64,000 nucleotides of DNA from Candidatus Magasanikiibacteriota bacterium. GTDB lineage: Bacteria; Patescibacteriota; Patescibacteriia; Magasanikbacterales; UBA922. The stretch is taken from the NCBI GenBank assembly GCA_042218065.1, contig JBDGRL010000002.1, forward strand, positions 15,539 through 79,538, read 5' to 3'. Each line of letters starts with the position of its first letter. Within the stretch, counting starts at the first letter, position 1. The notes beneath the pieces were generated by a model. That model made no database searches. It saw only the letters and a list, made by a program, of their open reading frames with translations, and had not been told where the DNA came from. A program made the position numbers and the translations under genes. Below are positions 4,192-46,761 of this stretch, in pieces.

Positions 4192-4264
4192 TGTGGATAA
4201 TTCTGTGTGTAACCTCCTTCTAATGTGGATAAATAAGGGTGATTTCCACAATTTCTGTGTATAA
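4192..4264. promoter_or_regulatory. Trio of DnaA-box 9-mers immediately 3' of tRNA-Leu
   Basis: Perfect TGTGGATAA at 4192-4200 and 4224-4232, plus TGTGTATAA at 4256-4264. Confidence 0.4.
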
Positions 4265-4363
4265 CTTGCCCTTAGAAGGCTGGTCATTATCAACAATCTC
4301 TAGATTGTAAAAATGATAAAAGTTTTATATAATTAACCTACTTAATAAATAATTCAAAAAAAT

Positions 4364-11807: not shown

Positions 11808-12076
11808 GTGTTTATTTAATTAATATTTATAACTGATTATTTTTTAAAATTTTATGTATATTATTAGTGTTGTGAATTGTGGGGATAACTTTTATTTTGC
11901 TTTAATCTTAGTCATACTTCTGGATTTATACCACTTAACAATAGATCTAACAACAAGTTAATAATGTGTGTACGAGATCGAACCTTATTTTGTCAGCTGT
12001 GGATTGCTGTTTATGGGATGTTAATGGAAAGTACAGTTTTATTCAAGCTATTCACAGCTTATCCACTTGTGGATTT
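11808..12076. promoter_or_regulatory. oriC-associated region (dnaA-dnaN intergenic) with DnaA boxes and an AT-rich unwinding stretch
   Basis: DnaA-box-like 9-mers: TGTGGGGATAA (11877), TGTGGATTG (11998), TTATCCAC (12059) and TGTGGATTT (12068). A highly AT-rich stretch lies at 11808-11870. Confidence 0.55.
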
Positions 12077-17420: not shown

Positions 17421-17421
17421 C

Positions 17422-19645: not shown

Positions 19646-19696
19646 AAGAGGGTGTTTAATACTTAGTACAGTTTTGAGAGCATGCTTTAACTTATC

Positions 19697-19770
19697 CGCG
19701 GCAGTCAAGTGATAAAGCAGGGGGCTCCAAATTTTCGATTAATGTCGGTCGTACCTAAAGATTAAATCGC
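19697..19770 (+). repeat. Degenerate direct repeat of tRNA-Cys (D-loop to 3' end plus about 15 nt of 3' flank); putative distal att site of a decayed island
   Basis: GCAGTCAAGTGATAAAGCAGGGGGCTCCAAATTTTCGATTAATGTCGGTCGTACCTAAAGATTAAATCGC aligns at about 75% with the tRNA-Cys 17358-17434 region, including the flank AAGATTAAA(C/T)CGC. Confidence 0.6.
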
Positions 19771-19810
19771 ACAGAAAACTATGCGGTTTTTGTAGTAAAT
19801 TAAATATAGA

Positions 19811-20221
19811 TTAATTTTCTTTTTGTTCTGCTAATTCTCTAATAAGTTCAGCTTGCTCTTCGCTAAGAAGGTCTTCACTAGCAGTGCCTACTCCACCTGA
19901 CCCTTCCTTATCAAGTCCAAAAGCTTGATTTACTTTATCACCTCTTACAACTATGCTTATATGCTCTTCTCCATTTGTTAATTCTTCTGTTCTAATATCG
20001 AAATTATGGTCTCCAGCATCTGATACTTCTATTCCTTCTCTGTCTGAAACGTCACTACTTTCAAAAATAGCCTCAGCAATACCAGCTTCTTTTATTTTTT
20101 GGTCAATCTCTGGGGCAGACGACTCACCTTCTTGTCCAGATTCTTTATTACACTTTGGACAAGTTTTCCCTTTAGGGGTGCCGTGACTACATGTGGGAGT
20201 GTACCCTTCACCTATAGCCAT
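19811..20221 (-). CDS. Hypothetical acidic protein with an N-terminal Cys/His cluster (zinc-ribbon-like)
   Basis: N-terminus TPTCSHGTPKGKTCPKCN; the rest is acidic and low-complexity. Confidence 0.35.
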   Translation of the reverse strand: MAIGEGYTPTCSHGTPKGKTCPKCNKESGQEGESSAPEIDQKIKEAGIAEAIFESSDVSDREGIEVSDAGDHNFDIRTEELTNGEEHISIVVRGDKVNQAFGLDKEGSGGVGTASEDLLSEEQAELIRELAEQKEN

Positions 20222-31780: not shown

Positions 31781-32084
31781 TTAAATAGTGTTACTTAATG
31801 CCAAGTTATTATAACACTATAGGTAATGGATAGAAAATTTTAGTATATTATATTTTACGACGCAGAATTTATTCTTAATTAAGTGAAATTTAAGTTTGTT
31901 AAAAAGTGATTAAAAATTTAATCAGAATCTGATTTTATTAATTCTCGTTTGTATCTTAATTTATTTTATTTGAAATTGTTTCACGTGAAACAATATAGGC
32001 TTTTTAAACTAATAAGATTAAAATAAATATTTTAGCTTGATAAATTTATTGAAATTTGTTACTGTGAAGTTGTTCTTTCAGGAC

Positions 32085-32365
32085 AACGAGTTTGCTAGTG
32101 GTAATTCCTAGGATTACCTACTGGCATGCCCTAGCCATCTCTGGGAGCAGCTAATAGCTGCCTAAGATTGATGCTCCGTTCGGGCGAGTCCGGATAATCA
32201 ATCTTAGAAAAAGCTGGCAGCCGATGCTGGGGCTTACTTGCCTTCGGCAGGGCAGGACCTCCTCCCCAGTGAATCGGTTTGGGGTTTCACCCACCCCGCC
32301 TCCCGATAGATCTCTATTGCCCTGATCAAGCAATATATCTACCGGGAGGTAAACGGGTTTTTTTA
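32085..32365 (+). ncRNA. GC-rich structured RNA-like element of unassigned identity, between parS sites 1 and 2
   Basis: About 280 nt at over 50% GC inside roughly 25% GC intergenic DNA. Multiple hairpins: GGTAAT-tcctagg-ATTACC, GCAGC-taata-GCTGC, GATTGAT...ATCAATC, CTTGCC-ttc-GGCAGG, and a long CCTCCCG...CGGGAGG stem followed by a T7 run. No clear protein frame. Confidence 0.35.
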
Positions 32366-32800
32366 TTTAAAATTGTTTCACGTGAAACAATTCTGCTCGT
32401 ATTTTACTCTGATATGGGTATTTAGCAGTAATTTTGCAGTTAAAATGTTTCACGTGAAACAATTTTACATCAATATACAGTCTTTTTGCTTATAAAAAAT
32501 GTTTCACGTGAAACAATTTAGTTACTTAAAACGTGTAAATAAGACAAAACACCGAAAAAAAGTGAATAATATTGTTTCACGTGAAACACTTTTTAAACTG
32601 AATAACCAAAATTATCTTTATTTGCATATTTATTACTTTTTTTTAGTATAGCTCCCTTTTTTATCTTAGATTGATAACAGCTCCCAAAAATGCTATAATC
32701 ACCCTGTATTGTTTCACGTGAAACAATTTAAACCAAGAAAATATAGGAAATAGGGTAAATGAGATGAAAAATGGATGAAAATGTTTCACGTGAAACATTT

Positions 32801-32872
32801 GCCCTCGTAGTTTAATGGACAAAACAAAAGCCTCCTAAGCTTTAGATGCACGTTCGATTCGTGCCGAGGGCA
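32801..32872 (+). tRNA. tRNA-Arg (anticodon CCT)
   Basis: Acceptor GCCCTCG/CGAGGGC, anticodon stem-loop AAAGC-CTCCTAA-GCTTT, T-arm GCACGTTCGATTCGTGC; 72 nt. A parS site sits immediately upstream (32780-32799). Confidence 0.85.
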
Positions 32873-33180
32873 CAAGTAAATACTCTTCATTAGAAAGGTG
32901 CTGAGTGTTCTTTTAGTGTATATTTAGACTCAATGTTTCATGTGAAACATTGAAAAGATAAATTAAACTTGTTAAACCCCTATAAAAGCCAAAAAGTTAT
33001 AAAGATATAGAAAAAAGTATATTTATAACTGAAAAGTACATAAAATTGTTTCACGTGAAACAATTTGGTAAAACCTTTAATCAAAAACGGGCTTGTTAAT
33101 TGTTTCACGTGAAACAAAGAGGAGTTAAAAATCTGTTTAGTTGTTTTTTGAAATTTTAGCGTCGTAAAATATTAATATCT

Positions 33181-33265
33181 TGTGGAAAACTTGTTGATAA
33201 GTTAAAAAAATTAGTGGATAAATTGTGTATAAGTTCTTAAAATCTGTTGATAAAGCTGTGGATAA
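33181..33265. promoter_or_regulatory. Dense cluster of six DnaA-box-like 9-mers (second oriC-like or DnaA-titration element)
   Basis: TGTGGAAAA (33181), TGTTGATAA (33192), AGTGGATAA (33213), TGTGTATAA (33224), TGTTGATAA (33246) and a perfect TGTGGATAA (33257-33265), all on the same strand within 85 bp. AT-rich DNA follows. Confidence 0.5.
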
Positions 33266-33361
33266 AAACAATTTAAACTAAATTAAGCTCAAATTATAAT
33301 AAGTTTATATAGATCCGTTTTTATCGACTAAATATTGAAAAATTCATCAATCAAGGCGTAT

Positions 33362-33690
33362 TAGATCATAAAAAAATGTTACTGAAATGACTTACGGTTA
33401 GATCACAAAAAATGTTACTGTGGTGTGTTTAATTTTTTAAATTGAACACACCATGAACAATCAAGCTAAAACATCTTACCAGCGAGTGCAAGAGCACTCG
33501 CAGATAGACCAGAAAGTAAAAAATAAACTTAAAGAAAAATTTAAGCAACTTAACCCCAAACAACTTAAAGAAAACATAGACAAAATGATTAAAAAGATTA
33601 GAAAATCAGCCCAAAATACAAAATAATTTCAGTAACATGCTTTTATGATCTAACCGTGGGGGGTTGAGTAACAATTTTTATGATCTAAAG
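33362..33690. repeat. Four copies of a TAGATCA(Y)AAAAAATGTTACTG motif (two direct, two inverted) bracketing a 57-codon Lys-rich ORF
   Basis: Direct copies at 33362-33388 and 33398-33424; inverted copies at 33618-33648 and 33668-33690. The ORF 33453-33626 (+) encodes MNNQAKTSYQRVQEHSQIDQKVKNKLKEKFKQLNPKQLKENIDKMIKKIRKSAQNTK. A related GTTACTG motif lies at about 32055. Confidence 0.35.
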
Positions 33691-33732
33691 CGCAAGGTAC
33701 ACCCTTTTTAAAGTATGTGTTATAATAACCAC

Positions 33733-34392
33733 ATGAATTTGAAAAGAATAATCACAATATCAATCCTTTCGTTTGTTTTATTTGCCATTCTTCCGAAAAC
33801 TGCTGACACTCAGATGAGTGGAGGGGGTTATAATATTTATACTGACAAGTTTTCTGTGGTTAGTACTAATACTTCTACCGGTGGCGCTTATGAGATTACC
33901 CAAACTGGCGGGCAGTACTTTGCTACTAATACAAAAAAAGGCAGTTTTGAGTTGCGCGGAGGATTTCAAGCACAAGAAAAAGGAATTTTAAAGGTAAATT
34001 TAAGTAAAAATACCCTTGATTTAGGTACTATTTCAAAAAGCAATGTATCAAAAGGTAGTATAAAAGTCACAATAACGACTGATTCAGAAACTGGATATAA
34101 CTTATCTATAAGCGAAAATCATAATTTAAAGTCAAATTCATTAACAATAAATGATGTTTCAGATGGTTCGGTGACTGGTGGCAGTCAAGAGTATGGAATT
34201 ACTACAAAAGGGGCTGATGGTTTGCTAAACCAAGACAAAGGTATTTCTGGCAATTTAAATATAGCGTCACACGATGGACAGGTGTACAAACGAACAGTGG
34301 AGGTTATATTTAAAGCATCTTTGTCCAATACTCCTGCTAATAATGAAGATCTATCACACAAAGTGACATTCAACACAACTGTAAATCCTTAA
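33733..34392 (+). CDS. Secreted beta-rich protein (first gene of the surface module)
   Basis: Signal peptide MNLKRIITISILSFVLFAILPKTADT followed by a Thr/Ser/Gly/Asn-rich sequence. The start at 33733 is preferred over the track start 33715, and a -10 TATAAT lies at about 33718. Confidence 0.5.
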   Translation: MNLKRIITISILSFVLFAILPKTADTQMSGGGYNIYTDKFSVVSTNTSTGGAYEITQTGGQYFATNTKKGSFELRGGFQAQEKGILKVNLSKNTLDLGTISKSNVSKGSIKVTITTDSETGYNLSISENHNLKSNSLTINDVSDGSVTGGSQEYGITTKGADGLLNQDKGISGNLNIASHDGQVYKRTVEVIFKASLSNTPANNEDLSHKVTFNTTVNP

Positions 34393-34393
34393 A

Positions 34394-35257
34394 ATGATTA
34401 GAAAAATAGCAGTTTTCATAATAATACTTGCTCTTTTTTTACCTTTAGAGGCTGAAGCTGTGTCAATTTCTCCTTTGCGCCAGGCAGTTTCTATAGAAAA
34501 AGGTGAAAAGAAACAAGTTCAGGTTAGCGTAAAAAACACATCAGACTCAAGAAAAAAATTTGTACCTGAGGTGAGCGGTTTTGATTTAAATAGTAGGGGG
34601 AGTATAAATTATGAAGCAGAAAGTATAGCTGAAGACTGGTTGCTTTATGACAGAAACCCCTTTGTTTTAGACCCCGGAGAAGAGAAGGAGGTCAGTTTTA
34701 CTATTAATATTCCAAATGAAGCTAAATCAAAGTCTTATTATTTGGTATTATTTATAAAAAGGGCAGGCATTGAGAGAAAGATGGCCGCCAGCCCAAAAGT
34801 AGGGTCTTTGTTATTTGTTCATGTAGCTGGGACTAGAGTAGAGAAAATGAGTATAGATAGTTTTGTGTCTTCTCGAAATTATTATTTTAGTACTCCGGTA
34901 AATATTAATATGAATACGAGAAATCTGGGTTCTATTCATGTTATACCTCAGGGAGCTGTAAGTATATTAGACAATGGAGAAGTGGTGGCAAAGAAAGAAA
35001 TAAATAAATCTAAGCAGATGGTTTTGCCGGATGGTACCTTTTCTAGAGAATTATCTTTTTCTAACTTAAATTGGACAGAAACCGGAAAACTAAAAGCAGT
35101 AGCTTATTTAAAATATGGCAGAACCTCAAAAACTACCTCTGCTTCTACAGAATTTTGGTTCATACCCAAAAAAGTTTTGATTTTTACTGGTGTCTTGATT
35201 ATAGCTCTGCTTTTCTTACTTTTTAGATTGAAGTCAAAAATAAAAAAATATGACTAA
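34394..35257 (+). CDS. Cell-surface protein with signal peptide and C-terminal TM anchor plus basic tail (DUF916/DUF3324-like or pilus-chaperone-like Ig fold)
   Basis: Signal peptide, then AVSISPLRQAVSIEKGEKKQVQVSVKNTSD in a beta-sandwich-like pattern, and a C-terminal TM FTGVLIIALLFLLFRLKSKIKKYD. Confidence 0.45.
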   Translation: MIRKIAVFIIILALFLPLEAEAVSISPLRQAVSIEKGEKKQVQVSVKNTSDSRKKFVPEVSGFDLNSRGSINYEAESIAEDWLLYDRNPFVLDPGEEKEVSFTINIPNEAKSKSYYLVLFIKRAGIERKMAASPKVGSLLFVHVAGTRVEKMSIDSFVSSRNYYFSTPVNINMNTRNLGSIHVIPQGAVSILDNGEVVAKKEINKSKQMVLPDGTFSRELSFSNLNWTETGKLKAVAYLKYGRTSKTTSASTEFWFIPKKVLIFTGVLIIALLFLLFRLKSKIKKYD

Positions 35258-36197
35258 TGAAAAAAAACAGAAAATTTTATTTTTTTCTTTATTTTTTATT
35301 TTTATATTGGCCTCCTTCTTTTTTATAAAAAATTCCTTTGTTTTAGCAGATTCTAAATCAAAATCTGCTACCATAAAAGGGACGACAAAAAGTGGCGGCG
35401 GTGGAGGTGGTGGAGGTGGAGTAAGTAACTCTTCTCCTGATATATCTAATATTTCTACAAGCACCCGGATGAATTCAGCTACAGTTACTTGGAAAGCTAC
35501 TGATGATAATCAGGTAAAAAAATGTGATTTCAAGTACAGTTCTGGTGTAAGTTACAACAAAAGCGTGTCCGTCACAAAAAGTGGTAATACTTATACAGCT
35601 AAACCTTCAGGGTTGAGCCCCACCACTACCTATAACTTTAAGATTATATGTCATGATAATGTTCAAAGCTCTGATGAGAAAGGACAATTTACAACTCTAG
35701 CTAAAGCTATAATAGATCTTAATTTAACTGCGATTCCTGCAAAAAGGGTAAAAAAGAAAGGTGGTAATTTAGCATTAAAGTTCATATTAATCATTGTTGA
35801 TCCACAAACCAATAATGTGATGTTAAAACACAAAGGAACTACTAATTCAAAAGGTACTTACACTGCAAAAAGATTAAAAGCGGGTGCAGGATCAGCCCAT
35901 GCTTATCTGAAGGGGCGCTCTCACTTAGCAAAAAAGATTGTAGGTGTTAATATAAAAGATGGAAAAACAGTGAAATTAGACTTTTCTGCAGGAGGAAAAT
36001 CTAAGTTGATTCCCGGCGATGCGGCTGGCAAGGGTCTAAAAGACAACTTTATAGATATATTAGATTTATCAGTAGTACTAGCTAAAATGAATACTGCCGA
36101 CAAGGACACTGATTTAAATAGGGATGGTATAACTGATATTTTAGATCTTAGTATTTTATTAAATAATTTTAATAAATCTGGAGCAAAACTACCTTAA
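35250..36197 (+). CDS. Secreted protein with poly-Gly linker, fibronectin type III-like domain and C-terminal dockerin-like repeats
   Basis: Signal/TM, G9 linker, an FN3-like region (ATVTWKATDDNQ...TTYNFKI), and two dockerin-type Ca-binding repeats at the C-terminus (DNFIDILDLSVVLAKM and DLNRDGITDILDLSILLNNF). Confidence 0.55.
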   Translation: MTNEKKQKILFFSLFFIFILASFFFIKNSFVLADSKSKSATIKGTTKSGGGGGGGGGVSNSSPDISNISTSTRMNSATVTWKATDDNQVKKCDFKYSSGVSYNKSVSVTKSGNTYTAKPSGLSPTTTYNFKIICHDNVQSSDEKGQFTTLAKAIIDLNLTAIPAKRVKKKGGNLALKFILIIVDPQTNNVMLKHKGTTNSKGTYTAKRLKAGAGSAHAYLKGRSHLAKKIVGVNIKDGKTVKLDFSAGGKSKLIPGDAAGKGLKDNFIDILDLSVVLAKMNTADKDTDLNRDGITDILDLSILLNNFNKSGAKLP

Positions 36198-36198
36198 T

Positions 36199-39100
36199 AT
36201 GGTTTTTAAGAGTGTAGATAAAATTGTATATTCTTTAGTCTTGGCTTTATTTGTCTTGGTGTCATTAGGATATTTTTCAGTAGCGCAAGCAAAAGGTGTG
36301 TTATCTATTAACCCCAGTTCAGGTCAAGCAAAGACCAACTGCCCTTTTAATGGGGATATAAGGCTAGACACAAAAGGAAACAAAGCTGATGCCACACAGG
36401 TTTATATTGATCATGATTTTACAGGAGGACAAGAGACATTCTCTTTATCCGGTTCTCGCTTATTCAATTCTTACTCTAATATTAAAAATAAGAATTTGCC
36501 TTCGGGGGTTGAGGACGGGTTAATAGGGTATGGTGGTAAAGTCAGTGGTTCAAACTTAAAGTTTGCCAGCTTCAAATTAAAAAGCCCAAATAAAGGCAAA
36601 ACTGGACAGGTAAAAATTTACTTTAAACCAAAGAAGAATAAGACAAGTAAGGTAGCTAAGAATGGAACTAATATATTATCCAAAGTAAATAACGGAACTA
36701 TTAATGTAGTACAAGGATATTGTGAGAACAAAAAGCCAAATGTAGTAAATCTAGACCCAAAACATAGAGAACCAAACCACCCTGTGGATAAACCGATAAA
36801 ATTTGACTTAACGGATAATAGTTCTGGGGTTGATATCTCGACCCTCCAAGTGATAATTAAACACAATAATAAAACTAACAAATATAGTAATCAAGATTCG
36901 GAGGTTACAACTAACAAGATAAATAATACAGATTATTCTGTAGAAGTTGACCCTCAAAAAGACTTTACTCCTCAAGTTCGTGTGGATGTAGAGGTGCAAG
37001 TGAAAGATAAAGCAGGAAATCAAGGTAAAAGAAAGTACTATTTTAATGATTTAACTTGTAAGCAGTTGGGATGTGTGGGGGTGCAAGTGAAAACTCAGTG
37101 TAATGATGGTAAAGACAATGACGGTGACGGTAAGATAGACTTAAATGATCCGGGTTGTAGTAGTAAGTCAGATAATAATGAATATCAGGTCGGTCTTACA
37201 AAATGTAATGATGGCCGTGATAATGATGGAGATGGTTTAGTAGATTTCGCTGATCCTGGCTGTCAAAGTGAGAAAGCTCAAGTGCAACAACAAATTAAGA
37301 CGCAGACTGTAACTAACACAGTAATAAAAACAAAAACTACTACGGTACCGACAAAAGTTCCAGATAAAACTAAAACAGTAACTAAGACTGTACAAAAGGT
37401 CATAACTTCCACAGTAAGAGAGGTTGAAACAGTAACCACAACTGAAGTAGCAACAGTCACCAAAAAAATAGAAAAACCTGACTGTAATGATGGAATTGAC
37501 AATGACGGAGATAAGTTGACTGACTTTCCTGAAGACCCTGGGTGCGACAGCAAACAAGATGATAGTGAGTTCGACAAAGCTACGCAAAAAGTACTGCAGT
37601 TATCTGATGTTTCTTTTCAGATAGGAGGACTGAGTGTGGAGCCTTCAGAAGGTAGAGTGGTGGATGTACTTAGAGGGTCTAAATTAAATGTCAGTCTAAA
37701 TATCTCTAAAGTAGAAAAGACTATTGAATCGGTGGAGCTACAATTTCAGGACCAAAAGAAAGAGATGTTCTATAATAATGAAACTGGTAATTATTCAGGC
37801 GAGATTACAATAGACGAGAAAAGAGGAGTTTATAGTGGCTTTGTTAGAGCTAATTATTCAGATGGCGACTTTGATTCTGTTCCGTTTAGTGTTTTGGTGC
37901 AGCCAAGTGGAAAGATAGTAGGCAGAAATAAAGAGGGTGAGATATCTGGACTAAAAGGGGCAAATATAAAAATTCAAAAATTAGAAGACGGAGAATATAC
38001 TGAGTTTAAGCAAACAAAAACAAATAAAAATGGAATATATAGTGTCTTTGTACCGAATGGTGTTTACCGGTTGTCGATATCAAAAAAAGGTTATGAAAGT
38101 GATGTTACGGCTGGGTTCGAAGTAGAGAACAACATTATAAATAAGAAAATACAGCTGCTTGAAGATATACAACTTCTAGATCCGAATGTTTCTACCGGCA
38201 AGAAGATACAGTACATACAAGATTTATCTGTAAAGAAGACTAAAGAAGCAGGGGAGCTAGCGGACGATCCTACGGTAGAGAAGCAAACTCAGTCTTCTAT
38301 TGCCCCTGCTGCGGCAGCGGCTACAGGAGCAGCTGTAGCTCCTGCTTTAGGTCTGGTGAATCTCTTGAATTACTTGAGGTTCTTGTTCTTCCAGCCATTG
38401 CTTTTGCTGGGAAGAAGAAAGAGAGAAGATTGGGGTGTAGTGTATAATTCACTTACTCGATCAACCATTGATCTAGCTGTCGTAAGGTTGGTTGATTTTG
38501 AATCAGACGAGGTGGTGCAGTCGAGAGTGACTGATGCTGAAGGCAGATACATCTTCTTTGCAAAACCGGGCAAATATAGGATAAAAGTAGAAAAAGAACA
38601 GTTTGATTTTCCAACTGAAAATCTGTCTGATGTAGATGAAGATGGTCCATATACAGATATATACCACGGAGAACCTATAAGAGTTGAAGAAGAGGATACA
38701 GCAGTTGCTCCAAATATCCCGCTTGATCCGGTAGAAGCCGAAGAAAAAACACCTTCAAGAATTAAATGGGACAAGATTAAAAAGACTGCACAGAAATATT
38801 TGGCTAGACTTGGTATCATTGCAGGTGTAATTTCTATGATTATTAATCCAACTTGGTTAATAGGTATCCTTCTGGCTGCTCAGATTGGTATTTATTACCT
38901 ATTTAGACGACTTGGAACCACACCTGAACCTGAGAATTGGGGAATTATAAAAGAAGAAGATACCGAATCTCCTGTTGGAGAGGCTACTGTTCGACTGTTT
39001 ACTAAAGATAGGAACAAACTTGTGTCCACTCAGCAAACAGATGAAAATGGTCGCTATGCTTTCCTTGCTGGTCCAAAGGACTATTATGTGCGTGTTGATA

Positions 39101-39243
39101 AAGAGGGTTACTCACCGGAAAGTAAAGAAGTTTCTGTAGAGGAAGGAGAAGAATTTATTCAAGAGGATGTAGATCTAAAAAAGACTAAACAAGGACCAAA
39201 AACAGAAGATGATGGAGAGGATGACTTGTCATTTGCAGAGTAA
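36199..39243 (+). CDS. Giant (1014 aa) surface protein with three Cys-bounded DxDxDG calcium-binding repeats, three carboxypeptidase-regulatory-like (prealbumin-fold) domains and internal TM segments
   Basis: Signal/TM at the N-terminus. Three repeats: CNDGKDNDGDGKIDLNDPGC, CNDGRDNDGDGLVDFADPGC and CNDGIDNDGDKLTDFPEDPGC. Three CarbopepD_reg-like modules (NGIYSVFVPNGVYRLSISKKGY, GRYIFFAKPGKYRIKVEKEQF, GRYAFLAGPKDYYVRVDKEGY). Hydrophobic segments at about aa 690-730 and 860-900. Confidence 0.55.
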   Translation: MVFKSVDKIVYSLVLALFVLVSLGYFSVAQAKGVLSINPSSGQAKTNCPFNGDIRLDTKGNKADATQVYIDHDFTGGQETFSLSGSRLFNSYSNIKNKNLPSGVEDGLIGYGGKVSGSNLKFASFKLKSPNKGKTGQVKIYFKPKKNKTSKVAKNGTNILSKVNNGTINVVQGYCENKKPNVVNLDPKHREPNHPVDKPIKFDLTDNSSGVDISTLQVIIKHNNKTNKYSNQDSEVTTNKINNTDYSVEVDPQKDFTPQVRVDVEVQVKDKAGNQGKRKYYFNDLTCKQLGCVGVQVKTQCNDGKDNDGDGKIDLNDPGCSSKSDNNEYQVGLTKCNDGRDNDGDGLVDFADPGCQSEKAQVQQQIKTQTVTNTVIKTKTTTVPTKVPDKTKTVTKTVQKVITSTVREVETVTTTEVATVTKKIEKPDCNDGIDNDGDKLTDFPEDPGCDSKQDDSEFDKATQKVLQLSDVSFQIGGLSVEPSEGRVVDVLRGSKLNVSLNISKVEKTIESVELQFQDQKKEMFYNNETGNYSGEITIDEKRGVYSGFVRANYSDGDFDSVPFSVLVQPSGKIVGRNKEGEISGLKGANIKIQKLEDGEYTEFKQTKTNKNGIYSVFVPNGVYRLSISKKGYESDVTAGFEVENNIINKKIQLLEDIQLLDPNVSTGKKIQYIQDLSVKKTKEAGELADDPTVEKQTQSSIAPAAAAATGAAVAPALGLVNLLNYLRFLFFQPLLLLGRRKREDWGVVYNSLTRSTIDLAVVRLVDFESDEVVQSRVTDAEGRYIFFAKPGKYRIKVEKEQFDFPTENLSDVDEDGPYTDIYHGEPIRVEEEDTAVAPNIPLDPVEAEEKTPSRIKWDKIKKTAQKYLARLGIIAGVISMIINPTWLIGILLAAQIGIYYLFRRLGTTPEPENWGIIKEEDTESPVGEATVRLFTKDRNKLVSTQQTDENGRYAFLAGPKDYYVRVDKEGYSPESKEVSVEEGEEFIQEDVDLKKTKQGPKTEDDGEDDLSFAE

Positions 39244-39310
39244 GATGTTTAAATTAGTTCTTGTGATTACTGTTGATCTTTTCATCAAATCCCAGCGTGA
39301 TTTAATGAGG

Positions 39311-39369
39311 TAACTCCTTTACGACTATCCGACAGATTGGCGGGATAGACCATGCTCGTAGAGGAGTTA
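39311..39369 (+). other. Nested stem-loop element in the dcd 5' region / 3' of the giant surface gene
   Basis: TAACTCCT ... AGGAGTTA is an 8-bp outer stem enclosing the TACGA/TCGTA and CTATCC/GGATAG stems. It is GC-richer than its surroundings and no T-run follows. Confidence 0.3.
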
Positions 39370-39423
39370 AGCCCGATCAACAGAATCACAAGTAAAAAAA
39401 TATGAATAAAATAAATAATCTCA

Positions 39424-40005
39424 ATGATTTTATCTGATCGCGATATAAAAGAAGAAATGGATGAAGGTAATATTGTTATTGATCCTTTCAATGAAGAAAA
39501 TCTGCAGCCGGCATCTTATGATCTGCATTTGGACAAGCATTTTCTAGTTTTTGATGAGATTCAACATCATGTTATCGATCCTAAGCAGAATCTAGATGAT
39601 AAAATGAAAGAAGTAGAGATCGACGAAGATGATGCTTTTATCATTCATCCGAATGAGTTTGCACTGGGCATGGTCAAGGAGGTGACTGGTGTTTCTGATA
39701 AAATTGCAGGGAGGCTGGAAGGTAAAAGTTCTGTAGGCCGGCTTGGGTTGTTAATTCATGTGACGGCTGGTTTTTTAGATCCTGGAAATGAGCTGAAGTT
39801 GACTCTAGAGCTTCACAACACAGCTCCGATGCCAATTAAATTGTATTATAATATGCCGATAGCACAGATTGCCTTCGAAAAGCTTAGTGATTCTTGTTCT
39901 GACCCTTACTCAGAAGGAAGAGAGGAAGATAAATATTACGGCGATATGAAGCCCAAAGCTTCACAGATGTTTAAAAACTTTGATGAAGATCAGGGATGGG
40001 TATAA
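39424..40005 (+). CDS. dcd: dCTP deaminase
   Basis: The N-terminus MILSDRDIKEEMDEGNIVIDPF is the classic Dcd start, and the C-terminal beta-barrel (dUTPase-like) fold pattern is present. Confidence 0.85.
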   Translation: MILSDRDIKEEMDEGNIVIDPFNEENLQPASYDLHLDKHFLVFDEIQHHVIDPKQNLDDKMKEVEIDEDDAFIIHPNEFALGMVKEVTGVSDKIAGRLEGKSSVGRLGLLIHVTAGFLDPGNELKLTLELHNTAPMPIKLYYNMPIAQIAFEKLSDSCSDPYSEGREEDKYYGDMKPKASQMFKNFDEDQGWV

Positions 40006-40541
40006 AACTAGGTATTGTAGGAAAAATAGGCAGTGGAAAAACTACTGCAGCTAAGTATCTACAACAGGCACATAATTTTAAAACTATTAAGTTTTCTGGA
40101 TTTGTTCGAGATATTTTAGACAGGATGCATTTACAGCAGAATCGGGATAATATGTCCAAATTATCAACTTCTCTTAGAGAAAGTTTTGGTAAGGACATAT
40201 TTAGTCGTGTGCTCATAAAAGAATCAAAAAACAAGGATAGAGTGATATTAGAAGGCGCCAGAAAACAAGAGGATTTATCCAATTTTAAAGACAGAGAAGA
40301 TTTTTATTTACTTGCCATAAGTGCCGACCAGGAAATTAGATATAATAGAGTTTCATCTCGTAATGAGAATGAAGATGATAAAGGTAAAACTTTTGAAGAA
40401 TTTAAACAAGACGAGAAAAAAGCTACTGAAACTGAAATTGCTTCTTTAATGAAACTAGCAGATTATACAATAAGCAATAATGGAACATTGGCAGAATTTC
40501 AAGAAAAATTAGATAAATTAATAGCTAAATTAAATGAATGA
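39996..40541 (+). CDS. P-loop nucleotide kinase (CoaE/dNMP-kinase-like) embedded in the pyrimidine cluster
   Basis: Walker A MGIKLGIVGKIGSGKTTAAKYL, a 181-aa size, and a lid-like region. Its position between dcd and dut suggests a (d)NMP kinase role. Confidence 0.55.
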   Translation: MGIKLGIVGKIGSGKTTAAKYLQQAHNFKTIKFSGFVRDILDRMHLQQNRDNMSKLSTSLRESFGKDIFSRVLIKESKNKDRVILEGARKQEDLSNFKDREDFYLLAISADQEIRYNRVSSRNENEDDKGKTFEEFKQDEKKATETEIASLMKLADYTISNNGTLAEFQEKLDKLIAKLNE

Positions 40542-41433
40542 GAAATTTAGAGAAAATAGGTATGTAGCAAGTTCGGAATCTGAATATACTGAATTAACAA
40601 GAGAAAATAGAGAAGAGCTAAAAGAAGAATTAAAAGAATCTTTGCCTGAATTAAAGAAACTTTTCTTGGAGGAACTTGAATCTTGTCCTTTTATAAGTGA
40701 TAATTTGATTGATAATATTAAAGATAGGGTTGACGAAGTAAATTTTAATCTAATTAATGAAATTCAAAAAGAACATACAGGATTGTTTAGGGGTATTTAT
40801 GATTTTATAACTGATGAAATTAAACTGAAAGAAAAGGCTAACAAAGGTACTATTATTCATGAATTACTGCACGCTGTAAGTAGTAGATTAATGAACAAAA
40901 AATCCCTAGAAGAAGGAGAGTTTAAAGTATTAGTCGGGGGTCTTAGTCCTGGAATAAAGTTAGATTTAGAAAAAGTAGATTTTGATTCAGAAGATGAAAT
41001 TAAAAATTTTTTTGAACATCCCGAATATGTAAGATGGCTAGAAGAAGGGGTTACTGATAAGTTTACCAGAGATATTTTTGGAGAAGAGGGGAGTAAAAAT
41101 TATGACCCTTATGTTTATTTACTAGAAGCTATACAAGAAGAGGCTGGAATTTCAGACGAGGAACTGGCAGAGGCATACTTTAAACCTTTTAAAAAATCTG
41201 AACAAAGTGAATATAATACAGAGGCAATTAGTAATTTCTTCAGTGCTATAAATGAGCGTTATACTTCTGGAATTATTTTTTATATACATGTAGTTTTAGG
41301 ATATGAATATACTCCTAAAGAAAGAGAAGAAATTGATAGTATTGATAAAGCGAAAGAATTTATTGAAGAAGTAGAAAAGGAATATAGTGATCGAAGTTTA
41401 ACTGATTTGGTAGAAGATTTGAAGCAACAGTGA
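40534..41433 (+). CDS. Hypothetical acidic protein with an HExxH motif
   Basis: A 299-aa Glu-rich protein; TIIHELLHAVSS contains HExxH; otherwise unrecognised. Confidence 0.35.
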   Translation: MNEKFRENRYVASSESEYTELTRENREELKEELKESLPELKKLFLEELESCPFISDNLIDNIKDRVDEVNFNLINEIQKEHTGLFRGIYDFITDEIKLKEKANKGTIIHELLHAVSSRLMNKKSLEEGEFKVLVGGLSPGIKLDLEKVDFDSEDEIKNFFEHPEYVRWLEEGVTDKFTRDIFGEEGSKNYDPYVYLLEAIQEEAGISDEELAEAYFKPFKKSEQSEYNTEAISNFFSAINERYTSGIIFYIHVVLGYEYTPKEREEIDSIDKAKEFIEEVEKEYSDRSLTDLVEDLKQQ

Positions 41434-41456
41434 AGCTAATTTAATAAAAGGTCTAT

Positions 41457-41882
41457 ATGAAAGTTAAAGTAAAAAAACTAAAAGGAGAAGCAAAAATTCC
41501 CAGCTTTGCGCATGAAGGTGATGCAGGAATGGATATTTATTCGACAGAGGATAAAGTAATCACCCCAAAAAACAGGGAGACGATTGAGTTGGGTTTCGCA
41601 ATGCAGTTTCCGTCAGATTACATGGTTATTTTTAAAGATAGAAGCAGTTTGGCTTCGGAGTATGGGGTTCATACTTTAGCGGGAGTTATAGACTCGGGGT
41701 ATAGAGGTGAGTATAAAGCAGTATTGGTTAATTTGGGGGATGAAAGTTTTGAGGTTGAAACAGGACAGAAAGTAGGGCAGATGTTATTTTTACCAAGACC
41801 TGAAATAGAGGTAGAACAAGTAGAAGAATTATCAGATTCTATTCGAGGAGAAGGAGGGTTTGGAAGCACAGGTAAGTTTTAA
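41457..41882 (+). CDS. dut: dUTP diphosphatase (trimeric dUTPase)
   Basis: Motifs AGMDIYS, GVIDSGYRGE and the C-terminal RGEGGFGSTG (motif V). Confidence 0.9.
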   Translation: MKVKVKKLKGEAKIPSFAHEGDAGMDIYSTEDKVITPKNRETIELGFAMQFPSDYMVIFKDRSSLASEYGVHTLAGVIDSGYRGEYKAVLVNLGDESFEVETGQKVGQMLFLPRPEIEVEQVEELSDSIRGEGGFGSTGKF

Positions 41883-41891
41883 TTAAATAAT

Positions 41892-43673
41892 ATGCAAGAA
41901 TACTCAGACAAAGAGCATAAAGCTTTACTTAATTTTGTAACAAGCACGGATTCAAATATTTACGCAGTAAAGAATTTACGTCCAGAAGTTTTTGGTGCTT
42001 TTGGTTCCTTCTTTTCGCGCAGCCCGAAAGATGTACGTGATCATATATTGGATGCAGTTAAAGGTGAAATTCGAGGTTACGAGATGGAGGGTGGAGAAGA
42101 AAGATTGAATAAATTAGCTACAAGCTATGAATTTCTACAAAAAAGATCAAAACTAGACTCTGGTGAAGACAGTGGAGGTATTAAGCAAGAGTTGAAAGAT
42201 ATTTTGAATAAAAAACGAGGGGTTAGAGCTGAGCTTGAAGCTTCTATTTTTGAACCACCAATGAAGGCTTTAGAGTCTGGTTTAGAGAAATCTCAGTCTT
42301 TTTTTGAAAAGTATTATGGAACTTATGGTCACAAATCTATTGCAAATACTGTTTGGATTTCATTTGTGGCAAATGATGTCAGTCAACTTTTTGCCCGAAA
42401 ACTGGCTGATGACCAACTTGCATTTTTTATTGAACAATCCACACGTTTTGTCGAATTTGAAGATAATTATTACAAGGATCCTAGAATTATGGAAAGTGAA
42501 TATAGCGATCTCTATAATGATACCTTAGAAACTATGATTGAATACTATAACAAATTTTATGAGCTAGCTAATAATTTCTACCAAGAAAAAATACCATTTA
42601 ACGACTGGCTAGACCAACAATCAGATAGGGTTAAAGAAAAGTCTGATAGCTATCAGGAAAGAAAATATGAAAGAGAACTAAATGGAAAAGCTTTGGATAT
42701 CGCAAGATTTTTGTTGCCTCAAGCTATAAAAACTAATTTAGCGTGGATCCTAGACGCTAGAAGTACGGAGTTTGATATAGCAAGCTGGAAGGGGCACCCA
42801 TTGTCCGAGATACAAGAATCAGCTGAAAAAATAGAACAAGCTGGCGGAGAAATTGCACCTTCTTTGCTTAAATACACAGAAAAAAATGATTTTTATGAAG
42901 AAAAGTTGCATGAATATGGTGGTGATTTAGAATTAGACTTGGAAGATAAAGAGATTGAAAAAGGGGTAGAAATTGTATCTACTCCCGAAGACTGCTTTGA
43001 GAAAGTGGTAGCACACATCTTAAAGCAAAATAATATAGGTAAATTTAGTCAGTTTTTCCAAAAAGCGAAAAATATGACTTATGATGAAAAGCTAGATATT
43101 TTAGAGCGTACAGTAAAAAATAGAGGTGAATACGATGAGTGGGTGGGAGCAAATGAGGAGATAGATTTAGAAAAAATCGTGGTAGAGATTAAAACTGATG
43201 TGGGAGCACTGAGGGATATTAGAAGACATCAAAAAAATGATAGAGGAGAGCATAGATATTCGCTAGATATGGGGTATTATCGTCCTGATGTAGTTGATAA
43301 AATGAACAAAGAAGCCCAAAATTTATTCGATAAAACTATGGATATTGCACATGAAGCTGAGAAAGAAATTAGAAAAGACTTCCCTTTTGCGGTTCAGTAC
43401 TTGATTCCTATGGCATCCATGACAACTATTACTATGAGTATGGGGTTCGATCAGTTGCAATACTTTATCTACACTAGGTCAACTCCAGAAGGTAATTTTT
43501 CTTATCGAGAAGATACATTTAATTTAACAGAAGCATTAGTAAAGAAATTTCCTTGGTTGTTGGGAATGAAAGAATACCCTGAAGATAAGGACATCAAAGA
43601 AGTTTATGATAATTGTAGTTGGCAAGATTTGTTTATCTCTTTAAGTACTGACGAGACTGGTTTACATACTTAA
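41892..43673 (+). CDS. Tandem-duplicated ThyX-like (flavin-dependent thymidylate synthase fold) protein with non-canonical catalytic motifs
   Basis: The first-half segment GHKSIANTVWISFVANDVSQLFARKLADDQLAFFIEQSTRF aligns with the ThyX core [41 protein letters not shown], but ADD replaces RHR. The second half has VEIVSTPED...IVVEIKTDVGALRDIRRHQKNDRGEHRYS, with RHQ in place of RHR and the Ser position not conserved. Length is 593 aa against about 220-250 for canonical ThyX. Confidence 0.5.
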   Translation: MQEYSDKEHKALLNFVTSTDSNIYAVKNLRPEVFGAFGSFFSRSPKDVRDHILDAVKGEIRGYEMEGGEERLNKLATSYEFLQKRSKLDSGEDSGGIKQELKDILNKKRGVRAELEASIFEPPMKALESGLEKSQSFFEKYYGTYGHKSIANTVWISFVANDVSQLFARKLADDQLAFFIEQSTRFVEFEDNYYKDPRIMESEYSDLYNDTLETMIEYYNKFYELANNFYQEKIPFNDWLDQQSDRVKEKSDSYQERKYERELNGKALDIARFLLPQAIKTNLAWILDARSTEFDIASWKGHPLSEIQESAEKIEQAGGEIAPSLLKYTEKNDFYEEKLHEYGGDLELDLEDKEIEKGVEIVSTPEDCFEKVVAHILKQNNIGKFSQFFQKAKNMTYDEKLDILERTVKNRGEYDEWVGANEEIDLEKIVVEIKTDVGALRDIRRHQKNDRGEHRYSLDMGYYRPDVVDKMNKEAQNLFDKTMDIAHEAEKEIRKDFPFAVQYLIPMASMTTITMSMGFDQLQYFIYTRSTPEGNFSYREDTFNLTEALVKKFPWLLGMKEYPEDKDIKEVYDNCSWQDLFISLSTDETGLHT

Positions 43674-43683
43674 AAATAATTTA

Positions 43684-44157
43684 ATGATAGCCCACATAGC
43701 AGCAATCTCAAAAAACAATTGTATCGGCAAAGATGGTGATTTACCTTGGTATATACCAGAAGATATGAAGCATTTTAAGCGCTTAACTCAAGGTAAAACA
43801 GTTTTGATGGGCAGAAAAACTTGGGAGTCAGTTCCAGAGGAATATAGACCTTTGCCTAACAGAAAAAATTTAGTTCTTACCAATCAAGGTGATTATAAAG
43901 TACCCGATGAAGTAAAGGTTTATGATAATATCCCCCAAGCATTAAAAGATCATAAAGAAGATGAAGTTATGGTAATAGGAGGTGAATCTGTATATAAAGC
44001 CACTATGGATAAAGCAGAGAGGTTATATATAACACATGTAGAACAAGAAGTTGATGACTGTGATGCATACTATCCTAAAATTAGAGGAGATGAGTGGCAA
44101 GAGATTAAAAGACAAGAGCATGATGGTTTTTCTTTTGTCACTTATAGGAGGCTATGA
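43684..44157 (+). CDS. folA: Dihydrofolate reductase
   Basis: MIAHIAAISKNNCIGKDGDLPWYIPEDMKHFKRLTQGKTVLMGRKTWESVP...RPLPNRKNLVLT matches the DHFR signature. Confidence 0.85.
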   Translation: MIAHIAAISKNNCIGKDGDLPWYIPEDMKHFKRLTQGKTVLMGRKTWESVPEEYRPLPNRKNLVLTNQGDYKVPDEVKVYDNIPQALKDHKEDEVMVIGGESVYKATMDKAERLYITHVEQEVDDCDAYYPKIRGDEWQEIKRQEHDGFSFVTYRRL

Positions 44158-44873
44158 AAAAAGGTGAGTTTATAATGGTTGATGGAGTTGATGGTGCAGG
44201 CAAGACTACAATAATAAATACTTGGAAAAAATTTTTGAGACAGAATAATCGGAAAATATTTGGTATAAGGGAATATTGGCAACAAAACCAGAATCATCCG
44301 GAGTTTGAACAGCTTAAAGATTATGATTTCATCTTTTCAGCTGAGCCAACTTCTGTTTGGACAGGAGCGGCACTGCGCAAAGAAATGATTAAACAAGATT
44401 CAGATTATTCAGGTAAGGCAATAGCCGAAGCTTTTAGTTTAGACCGGCTTGTACTATATAAGCGCTTACTTTTAAAGTTATTAAATGAAGATGTGAGTAT
44501 AATTCAAGATCGAGGGATCAGCACTTCTTTATGTTATCAGCCGCTACAATCTACTGAGTTGACGAGAGAAAAAGTAGCTAATCTGGAAGGAAATGCGTTT
44601 GCTTTGAAGAATAACCCAGAATATTTAATTTTGGCGGATCTACCGATTGAAGATGCGCTAGAACGTCTAGATTTACGTCAGCAACAAGATGATTCTGTGT
44701 TTGAGAAAAGGAAATTTTTAAACAGGGCTCGAGAAACTTTTTTATCGAAAGAATATCAAGATTATTTTATAAAGCAAGGTACGGAGATAAAAAAATTGGA
44801 CACCTCTGTAAACATTGATATAATGAAAGAGAAATCTGTCAGTTTACTGCAAAATATATTAAATATTAACTAA
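44154..44873 (+). CDS. tmk: Thymidylate kinase
   Basis: P-loop FIMVDGVDGAGKTT and the DRGISTSLCYQ motif (DRY/S-loop-like). Its start overlaps the folA stop. Confidence 0.75.
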   Translation: MKKGEFIMVDGVDGAGKTTIINTWKKFLRQNNRKIFGIREYWQQNQNHPEFEQLKDYDFIFSAEPTSVWTGAALRKEMIKQDSDYSGKAIAEAFSLDRLVLYKRLLLKLLNEDVSIIQDRGISTSLCYQPLQSTELTREKVANLEGNAFALKNNPEYLILADLPIEDALERLDLRQQQDDSVFEKRKFLNRARETFLSKEYQDYFIKQGTEIKKLDTSVNIDIMKEKSVSLLQNILNIN

Positions 44874-44878
44874 TTTTC

Positions 44879-45835
44879 ATGATTAGTTCATCTAATATAA
44901 TATCCAGAAGCATTTCTGTATATAAGAATAATTTTCTGGATTATGTAAAATATATCGTACTAGGTTTACTTCCCGGTGCAATAATGGGTGGTCTATTCTT
45001 AGTTTTTGGTTCTGCTGCTGCGATAGGGATTGTAGGATCGGGTATGAGTAGTACGGCTTCTTTAGTTTTTGGGGTTATTCTTTTTGCCATTATAGTTTTA
45101 TTTGCCATAGGTTTGTCCTTATGGGTTAATTTTGCGTTTATTAGAATGATCGGCTTAAAAGCAAGAGGAGAAGATACTGAAGGGGTTTTAGATAATTTTA
45201 TTGCCGTACGTTCTAAGTTTTGGCGGGCAATCGGGGCTAGCATTGTCATGAGTATATACGGAGGTTGGCCTCTGATTGTGGTTTCTTTGTTTTATTATTT
45301 GTATAGCTTAACAGGAGCAGAAGTAAGTGGTTCTGTATTAGTAGTATTTGCACTACTTGGATTGGCTGCGTTATTTTTGGGTATCTACTTTTTTGTAAGA
45401 GTGTTTTTCTCTGTTTTTCATGTCATTTTAGGTGATGCTGATATTTTTGAAGCTATAGATTACAGCCAAGATCAAGTAATAGGAAGCTGGTTTGGTGTGT
45501 TTTGGAGGCTTATTGCTCCTGCAATTGTATTTTTCATCATCAGTATTCTAGCACAAATTCTGCTTGGAGGTCTCTCAGCAGTTATAGATGCTACTGCAGT
45601 TTCTTTGCTTCTTTCCTTGCTTTTGTTTGCAATTCAAGTTCTAGTTCCACCACTATTTCCAACTGCACAGGTAGTTTTATACAATGATTTAGCTAACTCA
45701 AACCCTTCTTTGGGTGAGGATGAAGACAGCTCGGTGGATAGTTCTAAAGAAAAAGAAGATAAATCAAATACGAAAGAAGGGCAATCTGAAGAGAACCAAG
45801 CCGATGTCGATCTCAACGAATCCTTGGATAGCTAA
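44879..45835 (+). CDS. Polytopic membrane protein with acidic C-terminal tail
   Basis: Glycine-zipper-rich TM helices; C-terminal EDEDSSVDSSKEKEDK...DVDLNESLDS; paralogous to the next gene. Confidence 0.4.
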   Translation: MISSSNIISRSISVYKNNFLDYVKYIVLGLLPGAIMGGLFLVFGSAAAIGIVGSGMSSTASLVFGVILFAIIVLFAIGLSLWVNFAFIRMIGLKARGEDTEGVLDNFIAVRSKFWRAIGASIVMSIYGGWPLIVVSLFYYLYSLTGAEVSGSVLVVFALLGLAALFLGIYFFVRVFFSVFHVILGDADIFEAIDYSQDQVIGSWFGVFWRLIAPAIVFFIISILAQILLGGLSAVIDATAVSLLLSLLLFAIQVLVPPLFPTAQVVLYNDLANSNPSLGEDEDSSVDSSKEKEDKSNTKEGQSEENQADVDLNESLDS

Positions 45836-45893
45836 TTAAGAAGCTGAATTACCTGGAAATCAAAATTAAATTAAACAAAGCAAAGCAGACAAA

Positions 45894-46679
45894 ATGCTTA
45901 TTAGTGCAAGTAAAATAATTACAAAAAGTGTAGAACTATACCGGGAACATTGGAGAAAGATTCTAGAATATGTAGGAGTATTTTTTGTATCAATTTTGCT
46001 ATTAATTGTATTACAGCAATTAATTTTTCCTCCCAAAACAATAGTTATAACCAGCATCTCTGATATTAATGCAACCTATATTGCTTATCTCATATACAAG
46101 GCTGTTTTCATAATAGTTTTACTTTGGCTTACAGTAGGTCTTATTAAGGCAATGGCTCGTTGCTATAAAGGAAAGAAACCTCAAGGCATGAAAAATGAGT
46201 TAGAGTATAGTGCTAAGCATATCCTTTCTATAATAGGTGTTTCTATAGCAGTAAGCTTGACTGTTTCTGTGGGGTTTTTGTTGCTAATTATACCCGGAAT
46301 TATATTTTCAGTTTGGTTTAACTTTGCCTTGTATAGAGTAGCGCTGGAAGATGAAACTCCGATAACTGCAATGAAAGAAAGTAAAGAGCTGGTAGAAGGT
46401 AGGTGGTGGTCTGTTTTGTGGAGACTATTCTTGCCAGCTTTTGTTTTAAATTTAGGAATATTTTTGATTCAAGGGATTTTGATATTTGTTATTCGTATGA
46501 TAACGCCTAATGCTTTGATTATTAATACAGCTTCGGGTATAGCTAGTCTGTTTTTGTTCCCTGTTACACTTTTGGCAGCTATTATTTTATATATAGAGCT
46601 CAAAAAGACACCCGTAGAACAAAACCAACCACACCCAGAACCAAATAGCGATTCAGAGAGTAATGTGATAGAGAGTTAG
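45894..46679 (+). CDS. Polytopic membrane protein (paralog of 44879-45835)
   Basis: N-terminus ITKSVELYREHWRKILEYVGVF compared with ISRSISVYKNNFLDYVKYIVLG in the neighbour; the TM layout is similar. Confidence 0.4.
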   Translation: MLISASKIITKSVELYREHWRKILEYVGVFFVSILLLIVLQQLIFPPKTIVITSISDINATYIAYLIYKAVFIIVLLWLTVGLIKAMARCYKGKKPQGMKNELEYSAKHILSIIGVSIAVSLTVSVGFLLLIIPGIIFSVWFNFALYRVALEDETPITAMKESKELVEGRWWSVLWRLFLPAFVLNLGIFLIQGILIFVIRMITPNALIINTASGIASLFLFPVTLLAAIILYIELKKTPVEQNQPHPEPNSDSESNVIES

Positions 46680-46761
46680 TAAAATGGTTTAGAGATATTC
46701 GCAAGAAATTATACAATTTATTAGAAATTATTGAATATAAGCTAAAATAACAAACACAATT

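Follow-up and report, generated by a model that had tools for sequence, protein, structure and literature searches.

The closest described counterparts of the element studied here are the DnaA-box clusters (DBCs) of Bacillus subtilis. Six such clusters lie outside the replication origin (oriC) of this species, most of them close to it and situated between genes or in promoters (Okumura et al. 2012, PMC3245932). Deletion of the DBCs leads to early initiation, an effect that is strongly synergistic with the loss of Spo0J (ParB), and single re-inserted DBCs partly rescue the initiation defect (PMC3245932). DnaA acts as a transcription factor at these clusters, and their positions vary between Bacillus species (PMC3245932). 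We analyzed a 64-kb stretch (64,000 nucleotides, hereafter the window) of contig JBDGRL010000002.1 from a Candidatus Magasanikiibacteriota bacterium, a lineage of the Candidate Phyla Radiation (CPR). In this window, six DnaA boxes are packed into 85 bp at 33.2 kb, beside a dense array of parS sites, the predicted ParB-binding centromere sites.

The 33.2-kb cluster resembles the B. subtilis DBCs in being a group of near-consensus boxes in intergenic or promoter DNA, near oriC and apparently outside it. The window genome also shares with B. subtilis an origin that appears to flank dnaA, with unwinding placed in the dnaA-dnaN spacer, and the presence of several such clusters per genome; we count the genetic link of the DBCs to the ParB/ParA system as a further likeness (PMC3245932). 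In contrast to the DBCs, the window cluster abuts a ten-site parS array, and its position is conserved among relatives.

With datA of Escherichia coli, the cluster has in common a handful of predicted high-affinity boxes at a non-origin, early-replicated site of the kind credited with reducing the amount of DnaA left for oriC. The datA locus, where DnaA is titrated and DnaA-ATP hydrolyzed, needs for this hydrolysis an IHF site between its boxes, which stand in a specific arrangement, whereas the window cluster is made of six co-oriented boxes in three phased pairs. The E. coli DnaA-reactivating sequences DARS1 and DARS2 are likewise non-origin clusters of DnaA boxes, and they affect the nucleotide state of DnaA. 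The core of a DARS has three boxes, two of which face in opposite directions. This arrangement is absent from the window, where all six boxes lie on one strand, and a DARS-like site, which an earlier sequence-only reading of the window had offered as one possibility, is disfavored for this reason; the version of the cluster in one relative (L014) has mixed orientations.

The parS region of Caulobacter crescentus, located between a few and some tens of kb from the origin, also contains DnaA boxes, and DnaA reportedly binds the centromere and is needed for its segregation. The window differs in having a dense six-box array beside ten parS sites instead of isolated boxes, and its host is a Patescibacterium. 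The Bacillus-type bipartite oriC with its basal unwinding system (BUS) (Richardson 2016; Pelliciari 2021, PMC8287927) matches the dnaA-flanking elements of the window genome, whereas the 33.2-kb cluster lies outside them and resembles a BUS only under a permissive definition of the DnaA-trios.

A dense and phased cluster of DnaA boxes

We scanned the window for 9-mers with at most one mismatch to the DnaA box TTATCCACA. In agreement with the sequence-only reading, exactly six were found at 33181-33265, one of them perfect and five with one mismatch, all co-oriented and reading TTATCCACA-like on the minus strand (Table 1). On the plus strand, the cluster reads TGTGGAAAA ct TGTTGATAA gttaaaaaaatt AGTGGATAA at TGTGTATAA gttcttaaaatc TGTTGATAA agc TGTGGATAA, in which gttaaaaaaatt and gttcttaaaatc are the 12-nt spacers between the box pairs. 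The start-to-start spacing of 11/21/11/21/12 bp divides the cluster into three pairs, with 11-12 bp inside a pair and a 32-bp period from pair to pair. Because of this period, all six boxes are on approximately the same face of the helix.

To judge enrichment, we used dinucleotide-preserving shuffles, 300 of the window and 2000 of the local 1.9-kb intergenic region. The window contains 44 boxes at the above threshold, compared to 17.9 +/- 4.2 in the shuffled sequences. The top count per 100 bp was six, and the shuffles never exceeded three (window) or two (local region). This excess indicates that the six-box cluster is real and non-random. It has the highest box density of the window and is denser than the cluster of five boxes upstream of dnaA.

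The AT-rich stretch reported to follow the boxes is present, with 80% AT at 33266-33355 compared to 70% for intergenic DNA overall. As a distinguishing feature it is unexceptional, since the window maximum, 94% over 50 bp, is in the dnaA-dnaN spacer. Furthermore, the stretch adjoins the side of the cluster opposite to the one into which a BUS-type oligomer would extend.

Strand skew and the location of the origin

The raw GC-skew profile of the window was ambiguous and dominated by gene orientation. Because raw GC skew follows gene orientation, we used the skew at four-fold degenerate third positions instead (60-odd open reading frames (ORFs) with 6,611 sites). The cumulative (G+T)-(A+C) curve of the plus strand has a sharp, V-shaped minimum at 13.3-14.0 kb, which is found independently in G-C and in T-A. 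Four-fold skew was -0.136 between 1 and 13.5 kb, +0.064 between 13.6 and 31.8 kb, and +0.094 between 33.7 and 64 kb. In each region the sign is identical for genes on either strand; the skew is therefore associated with replication and not with transcription.

The maximum likelihood change point was located at 12,584, with a support interval of two log-likelihood (lnL) units from 11,508 to 14,141, which covers dnaA. The change point forced to 33.2 kb was worse by 15.65 lnL units, and a second change point added at 33.2 kb resulted in a gain of only 2dLL = 1.07. In a bootstrap over genes, the skew of the 13.6-31.8 kb segment ranged from 0.010 to 0.115 and never reached the negative values expected of an origin at 33.2 kb. 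An oriC is expected to coincide with the switch in skew, and the 33.2-kb cluster does not. The sequence-only reading had named two observations that together would speak against its proposals, namely a skew minimum at dnaA and a lack of box enrichment over shuffled sequence; within the 64-kb window the minimum is indeed at dnaA, but the boxes are clearly enriched.

Loci from relatives, designated here by L numbers, were analyzed for the same skew. In L001, the closest relative (RmuC 75% identical), the skew from rmuC to polA, calculated for the rmuC coding strand, is -0.136 (z = -4), and replication at this locus therefore runs from the dnaA side toward parS. L136/L137 (DnaA 90% identical) and L138 (DnaA 72% identical) share the gene order PBP-dnaA-dnaN-rnpA, where PBP denotes a penicillin-binding protein. 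In both, the sign changes at dnaA, from -0.04 on the left to +0.08 to +0.09 on the right in L136/L137, and from -0.148 to +0.393 in L138. At these divergences, the synonymous sites of the relatives are effectively independent. In L007 (9172-10001), the skew flips upstream of rmuC (-0.166 on the left, +0.088 on the right) at a place with two isolated DnaA boxes and no parS; this flip may be a rearrangement breakpoint.

Architecture of the dnaA-dnaN region

For the comparison with the BUS, the orientation was taken from the B. subtilis dnaA-dnaN spacer, and the trio 3'-GAT-5' was read as CTA on the box strand. In a BUS, a strong box is followed by a weaker one and, after a short spacer, by three or more trios with the consensus 3'-GAT-5' and by AT-rich DNA (PMC8287927). 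The dnaA-dnaN spacer of the window contains a series of this kind, which likely constitutes the unwinding module of oriC (Table 1). Past its trios, approximately 50 bp at 90% AT extend up to the start codon of dnaN, and the 50-bp maximum of AT content mentioned above falls in this same spacer. Homologous modules are present in L009 (TTGTCCCCA CTATTCACA CCCC CTA CTA TTA), in L136/L137 (TTATCCGCA GAATTAACA ACA CTA ATA ATA ATA), and in L138. In the window, the PBP gene located upstream of dnaA is of class A.

We also applied a permissive published definition, which asks for at least three NAN triplets within 16 bp of a box. It carries little weight because 17 of the 44 window boxes (39%), in AT-rich DNA, pass it. 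The sequence CTCCTTCTA, found after the box at 13578 (and at 4214), was considered as a set of DnaA-trios and rejected, since it is on the wrong side for the B. subtilis box orientation. The cluster immediately upstream of dnaA is conserved (Table 1) and probably serves the dnaA promoter and autoregulation; it probably also makes up the upstream half of the origin. Composition and architecture together place the origin at dnaA, with boxes upstream and, as in Bacillus, probable unwinding in the dnaA-dnaN spacer.

Two differences in gene arrangement were observed in this part of the window. In the window (10306-13681), rnpA shares the strand of dnaN and comes right after it, as it does in L136-L138. 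In other Magasanikbacteria, namely L009 (17187-21017) and the P0023 contig, rnpA and dnaA are divergent; an inversion of dnaA-dnaN (or of the rnpA block) has therefore taken place in the sublineage of the window. Between a gene encoding 173 amino acids and polA, the window contains a block (17350-20221) with tRNA-Cys, a fragment of an AbiEii toxin gene, a DUF4143 ATPase gene and a small ORF. This block is missing in the otherwise collinear L136/L137 and is probably a small inserted island.

Conservation of the cluster in relatives

Contigs from relatives were reached through homologues of the first gene downstream of the cluster (33715-34392). In L010-L012, in which the flanking protein is 71% identical, six boxes match those of the window in orientation and in their 11/21/11/21/12 spacing, and these come after the 18-mer TAGCGTCGTAAAATATTA and a parS array with tRNA-Arg (nine parS sites in L011). 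In L014/L015 (54% identical), seven boxes with at most one mismatch are found in both orientations within approximately 125 bp, bordered on one side by a tRNA-Arg and degenerate parS sites and on the other by the same operon. In a three-way alignment, 94% (L011) and 80% (L014) of the box columns are identical to the window. Elsewhere, the identity is 68% and 45%, respectively, in the spacers within the cluster, and 47% and 52% in the flanks. By this comparison the box columns are under purifying selection, which lends indirect support to binding by DnaA, and so clear a phylogenetic footprint suggests that the boxes are functional.

The surroundings of the cluster are retained to different extents. 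L001 has four parS sites at the array, and the L001/L002 contig stops inside the array; assemblies of the relatives often break at this position (L001, L010-L015). A tRNA-Arg gene is located beside the array or the boxes in L011 and L014, and beside parS in L009. Among more distant Magasanikbacteria, L009 retains parS and tRNA-Arg without the box cluster, and L007 retains a GC-rich element and tRNA-Arg without parS or boxes. In view of these differences, the combination of boxes and parS is specific to a sublineage. Neither parS nor a box cluster was found beside rmuC in the distant genomes L003, L005, L007, and L008, and a search of genome contigs with RmuC found no relative.

A third cluster of boxes follows tRNA-Leu in the window. 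The perfect pair that the earlier reading had reported there was recovered at 4192 and 4224, and a box at 4256 continues its 32-bp period (Table 1). L136 has a perfect box pair, also 32 bp apart, at the equivalent place (18767 and 18799). Together, the 4.2-kb and 33.2-kb loci suggest that at least two extra-origin DnaA-box clusters are present in this lineage.

Adjacency to the parS array

The boxes had been described as standing directly beside a parS array, and this holds: there are ten parS sites, and 64 bp separate the end of the last one from the first DnaA box. For the parS sequence, 0.04 sites are expected by chance, and no site is present elsewhere in the window. With ten sites spread over 1.1 kb, and a tRNA gene and a structured element lying among them, this is an unusually dense chromosomal centromere array.

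We surveyed a sample of 120 listed loci from many phyla, each with two perfect parS sites 30-60 bp apart. Among these loci from other bacteria, none has four or more boxes within 700 bp of parS; the juxtaposition of boxes and parS is therefore no general property of centromere regions. In the window the boxes are adjacent to the parS region, and the adjacency is conserved in L010-L012 and L014/L015. In a Parcubacteria contig, L092 (JAAZHW010000091.1, 4440-4920), a 218-bp tandem unit contains one perfect TTATCCACA and three parS sites. The order within the unit is a split palindrome TGTTTCACAAAnTTTGTGAAACA, the perfect box, and the three parS sites 52 bp apart, with the unit recurring at least twice up to the contig end. 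No dnaA was found on the sequenced side of this array, at which the contig stops; the neighboring gene encodes phosphoglycerate mutase.

Possible roles of the cluster

On balance, we regard the 33.2-kb element as a probable DnaA-box cluster near oriC but outside it, which would serve, by analogy with the DBCs and datA, as a titration or regulatory site; a datA-like titration site was among the options of the sequence-only reading. It is located on the right replichore, 19.7 kb from the start of dnaA and 21.3 kb from the predicted unwinding module, and it shares with the DBCs the clustering of near-consensus boxes in intergenic DNA outside oriC and the origin-proximal position. DnaA would bind the six co-oriented boxes cooperatively, head to tail, and oligomerize over the three phased pairs; the bound locus would hold DnaA away from oriC. 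At 20 kb from oriC, the locus would be copied very soon after initiation, its capacity would double early, and this doubling would exert negative feedback on re-initiation, in line with the mechanism put forward for the DBCs of B. subtilis and for datA of E. coli. Bound DnaA may also modulate the adjacent operon, including its genes for the synthesis of deoxythymidine triphosphate (dTTP), as at several B. subtilis DBCs.

Several points weigh against a titration or regulatory site. The titration of DnaA by the cluster is argued from analogy, and titration alone does not explain the tight adjacency to parS, of which the 120 listed loci offered no other case with four or more boxes. The slope of the skew is shallower between 16 and 33 kb than further to the right, which could reflect noise, recent insertions, or some input from a second start site, and the skew evidence comprises 64 kb and the short loci of relatives, less than a whole genome. 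On its left side, the cluster formally has the NAN triplets of the permissive BUS definition, as do other boxes of the window. Finally, promoter-like sites near the cluster are no more numerous than expected by chance.

The adjacency would find an explanation if DnaA bound beside parS acted on the partition complex and not on initiation, either by licensing or orienting ParB/parS segregation, as reportedly in Caulobacter, or as a stationary barrier to ParB sliding or SMC loading on the operon side. The 64-bp gap, which is kept as an adjacency in L010-L012 and more loosely in L014/L015, the interleaving of perfect boxes with parS in the unrelated contig L092, the lack of such an arrangement among the 120 surveyed loci, the synergy between DBC and spo0J deletions in B. 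subtilis (PMC3245932), and the reported binding of DnaA to the Caulobacter centromere all argue in this direction. However, the window revealed no gene for ParA or ParB, L009 has parS and tRNA-Arg without the boxes and L007 has neither parS nor boxes, and the two elements might be neighbors simply because each is an intergenic feature close to the origin. Such coupling is also compatible with titration and does not exclude it. We regard a direct coupling of DnaA to ParB or the centromere as unlikely, although it deserves to be kept in mind. We give slightly less credence to a more specific version, in which in some Patescibacteria a phased DnaA oligomer at the edge of a dense parS array, as in the window, or interleaved with one, as in L092, would gate or bound ParB loading, sliding or SMC recruitment, and the ParB complex would in turn control the amount of DnaA bound there; one compact cis-module, in place of Soj- or MipZ-type proteins, would thereby tie initiation to segregation.

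A purely transcriptional operator, at which DnaA would repress or activate the downstream operon and thereby tie the supply of dTTP or the growth of the envelope to the replication cycle, appears improbable to us. DnaA is known to act as a transcription factor at B. subtilis DnaA-box clusters (PMC3245932), the boxes of L010-L012 and L014 are approximately 95-160 bp upstream of the start codon of the conserved operon's first gene, and a TTTAAA-17-TATAAT site follows the last box in the window. Yet this site is no better than chance and was not recovered in L011, and six phased boxes far exceed what an operator needs. In the window genome, a 340-bp insert separates the boxes, still intact, from the operon, and the genes for nucleotide metabolism are 6 kb downstream. 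The location of the origin itself at 33.2 kb, be it as the true oriC with autoregulatory boxes at dnaA, as the sequence-only reading had considered, as a second origin, or as the distal half of a bipartite origin, with the adjoining AT-rich DNA as the place of unwinding, we hold to be very unlikely. The top box density, the phased and co-oriented boxes, four NAN triplets and AT-rich DNA on the correct side, the usual proximity of parS arrays to origins, the 14.6-kb run of co-oriented genes that begins here, and the steeper skew slope to the right of 33 kb would all fit an origin. They are outweighed by the skew, which shows no change of sign at 33.2 kb and prefers dnaA by the difference in likelihood given above, by replication heading toward parS in L001, by the sign changes at dnaA in L136/L137 and L138, and by the dnaA-dnaN spacer, which has a conserved module of BUS type and the window's most AT-rich stretch. 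The left flank of the cluster, at 75-77% AT, carries a conserved GCGTCG, and the 40 bp past the triplets are only 75% AT. A bipartite origin coupled to the centromere, which the sequence-only reading had also raised, is unlikely because 20 kb far exceeds the distances known for bipartite origins.

Neighborhood of the cluster

The cluster is located toward the right end of a 1.9-kb non-coding region between rmuC and an operon that begins with genes for surface proteins. The coordinates of the features are summarized in Table 1.

Table 1. Features of the 64-kb window, with coordinates counted from the first letter of the window.
Feature	Position	Strand	Remarks
Six-DnaA-box cluster	33181..33265	minus	scan against TTATCCACA
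Box 1	33181 (start)		TGTGGAAAA (plus-strand letters)
Box 2	33192 (start)		TGTTGATAA (plus-strand letters)
Box 3	33213 (start)		AGTGGATAA (plus-strand letters)
Box 4	33224 (start)		TGTGTATAA (plus-strand letters)
Box 5	33245 (start)		TGTTGATAA (plus-strand letters)
Box 6	33257 (start)		TGTGGATAA (plus-strand letters)
Conserved left flank	33157..33180	plus	TAGCGTCGTAAAATATTA + 6 nt; L010-L012 have the identical 18-mer, equally far from their first box
Four NAN triplets	33167-33178		AAA TAT TAA TAT; DnaA-trio orientation, 2 nt from the first box; weak candidate
parS array, ten sites	31977..33116		TGTTTCACGTGAAACA; nine perfect, one with one mismatch at 32934
rnpA	10306-10680	minus	5-bp gap after dnaN
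dnaN	10686-11807	minus	
Likely oriC unwinding module	11808..11888	minus	dnaA-dnaN spacer; inside the support interval of the skew change point
Trios of the module	11859-11867	minus	CTA ATA ATA, after the 3-nt spacer ACA
Weak box of the module	11871-11879	minus	CAATTCACA
Strong box of the module	11880-11888	minus	TTATCCCCA
dnaA	12059-13468	minus	
Cluster upstream of dnaA	13475..13642	minus	five boxes (one mismatch at most) and additional weaker ones; retained in L136/L137 and L138
Third cluster, after tRNA-Leu	4192..4295		boxes at 4192, 4224 and 4256 (32-bp period); box at 4287 on the opposite strand
rmuC	30668-31780	minus	left neighbor of the 1.9-kb non-coding region
GC-rich structured element, ~310 nt	32058..32368	plus	inside the parS array
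tRNA-Arg(CCT)	32801..32873	plus	inside the parS array
Promoter-like site	33272..33300	plus	TTTAAA, 17 nt, TATAAT; directly after the last box, toward the downstream operon
Insert, ~340 bp	33356..33693		doubled terminal inverted repeats and a 57-aa ORF (33453-33626); between the boxes and the operon
Co-oriented gene run	33715..48309	plus	14.6 kb; conserved, same order in L013 and L014

The GC-rich element within the parS array folds more stably than shuffled sequences (z = -5.5 for the plus strand and -5.3 for the minus strand) and has a T-run at its plus-strand end. It had no match in Rfam, even at E<=10. GC-rich elements also adjoin tRNA-Arg(CCT) in L007 (9430-9680) and L009 (4100-4340); an alignment of these two with the element of the window was unconvincing. 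The element may be an undescribed CPR RNA.

Each end of the insert between the boxes and the operon has two tandem copies of a 22-33 nt repeat, in inverted orientation at the two ends (TTAGATCAYAAAAAAATGTTACTG). The insert is confined to the window genome, being absent at this place in L010-L012 and L014, and the window contains no second copy. It looks like a small mobile element or an operator-flanked cassette.

The co-oriented genes downstream encode, in this order, four surface-type proteins, dcd, a kinase, dut, thyX, folA, tmk, two membrane proteins, and gatB. The slot of the thymidylate synthase (41892-43673) is occupied by a 593-aa protein with a ThyX domain, whereas L013 (7131-8003) and L014 (7949-8821) have a 290-aa ThyA. 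Judging from the order dcd-dut-thy-folA-tmk, ThyX looks like a non-orthologous replacement of ThyA in place, which is odd beside a folA that was kept.

Implications for replication in the Candidate Phyla Radiation

To our knowledge, nothing is known experimentally about the control of replication in the CPR. For one CPR lineage, the locus offers a concrete picture, with a Bacillus-like origin flanking dnaA and conserved DnaA-box clusters outside this origin. As read from its sequence, the 33.2-kb element would belong to a known kind, the extra-origin DnaA-box cluster; new are its occurrence in a CPR lineage and its placement against a dense parS array. Origin predictors that rank loci by DnaA-box density would misplace oriC in this genome. 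Should the cluster titrate DnaA, the principle known from the DBCs and datA would hold for ultra-small episymbiotic bacteria as well; should it act on the ParB complex, it would represent a new and very compact link between initiation and segregation.

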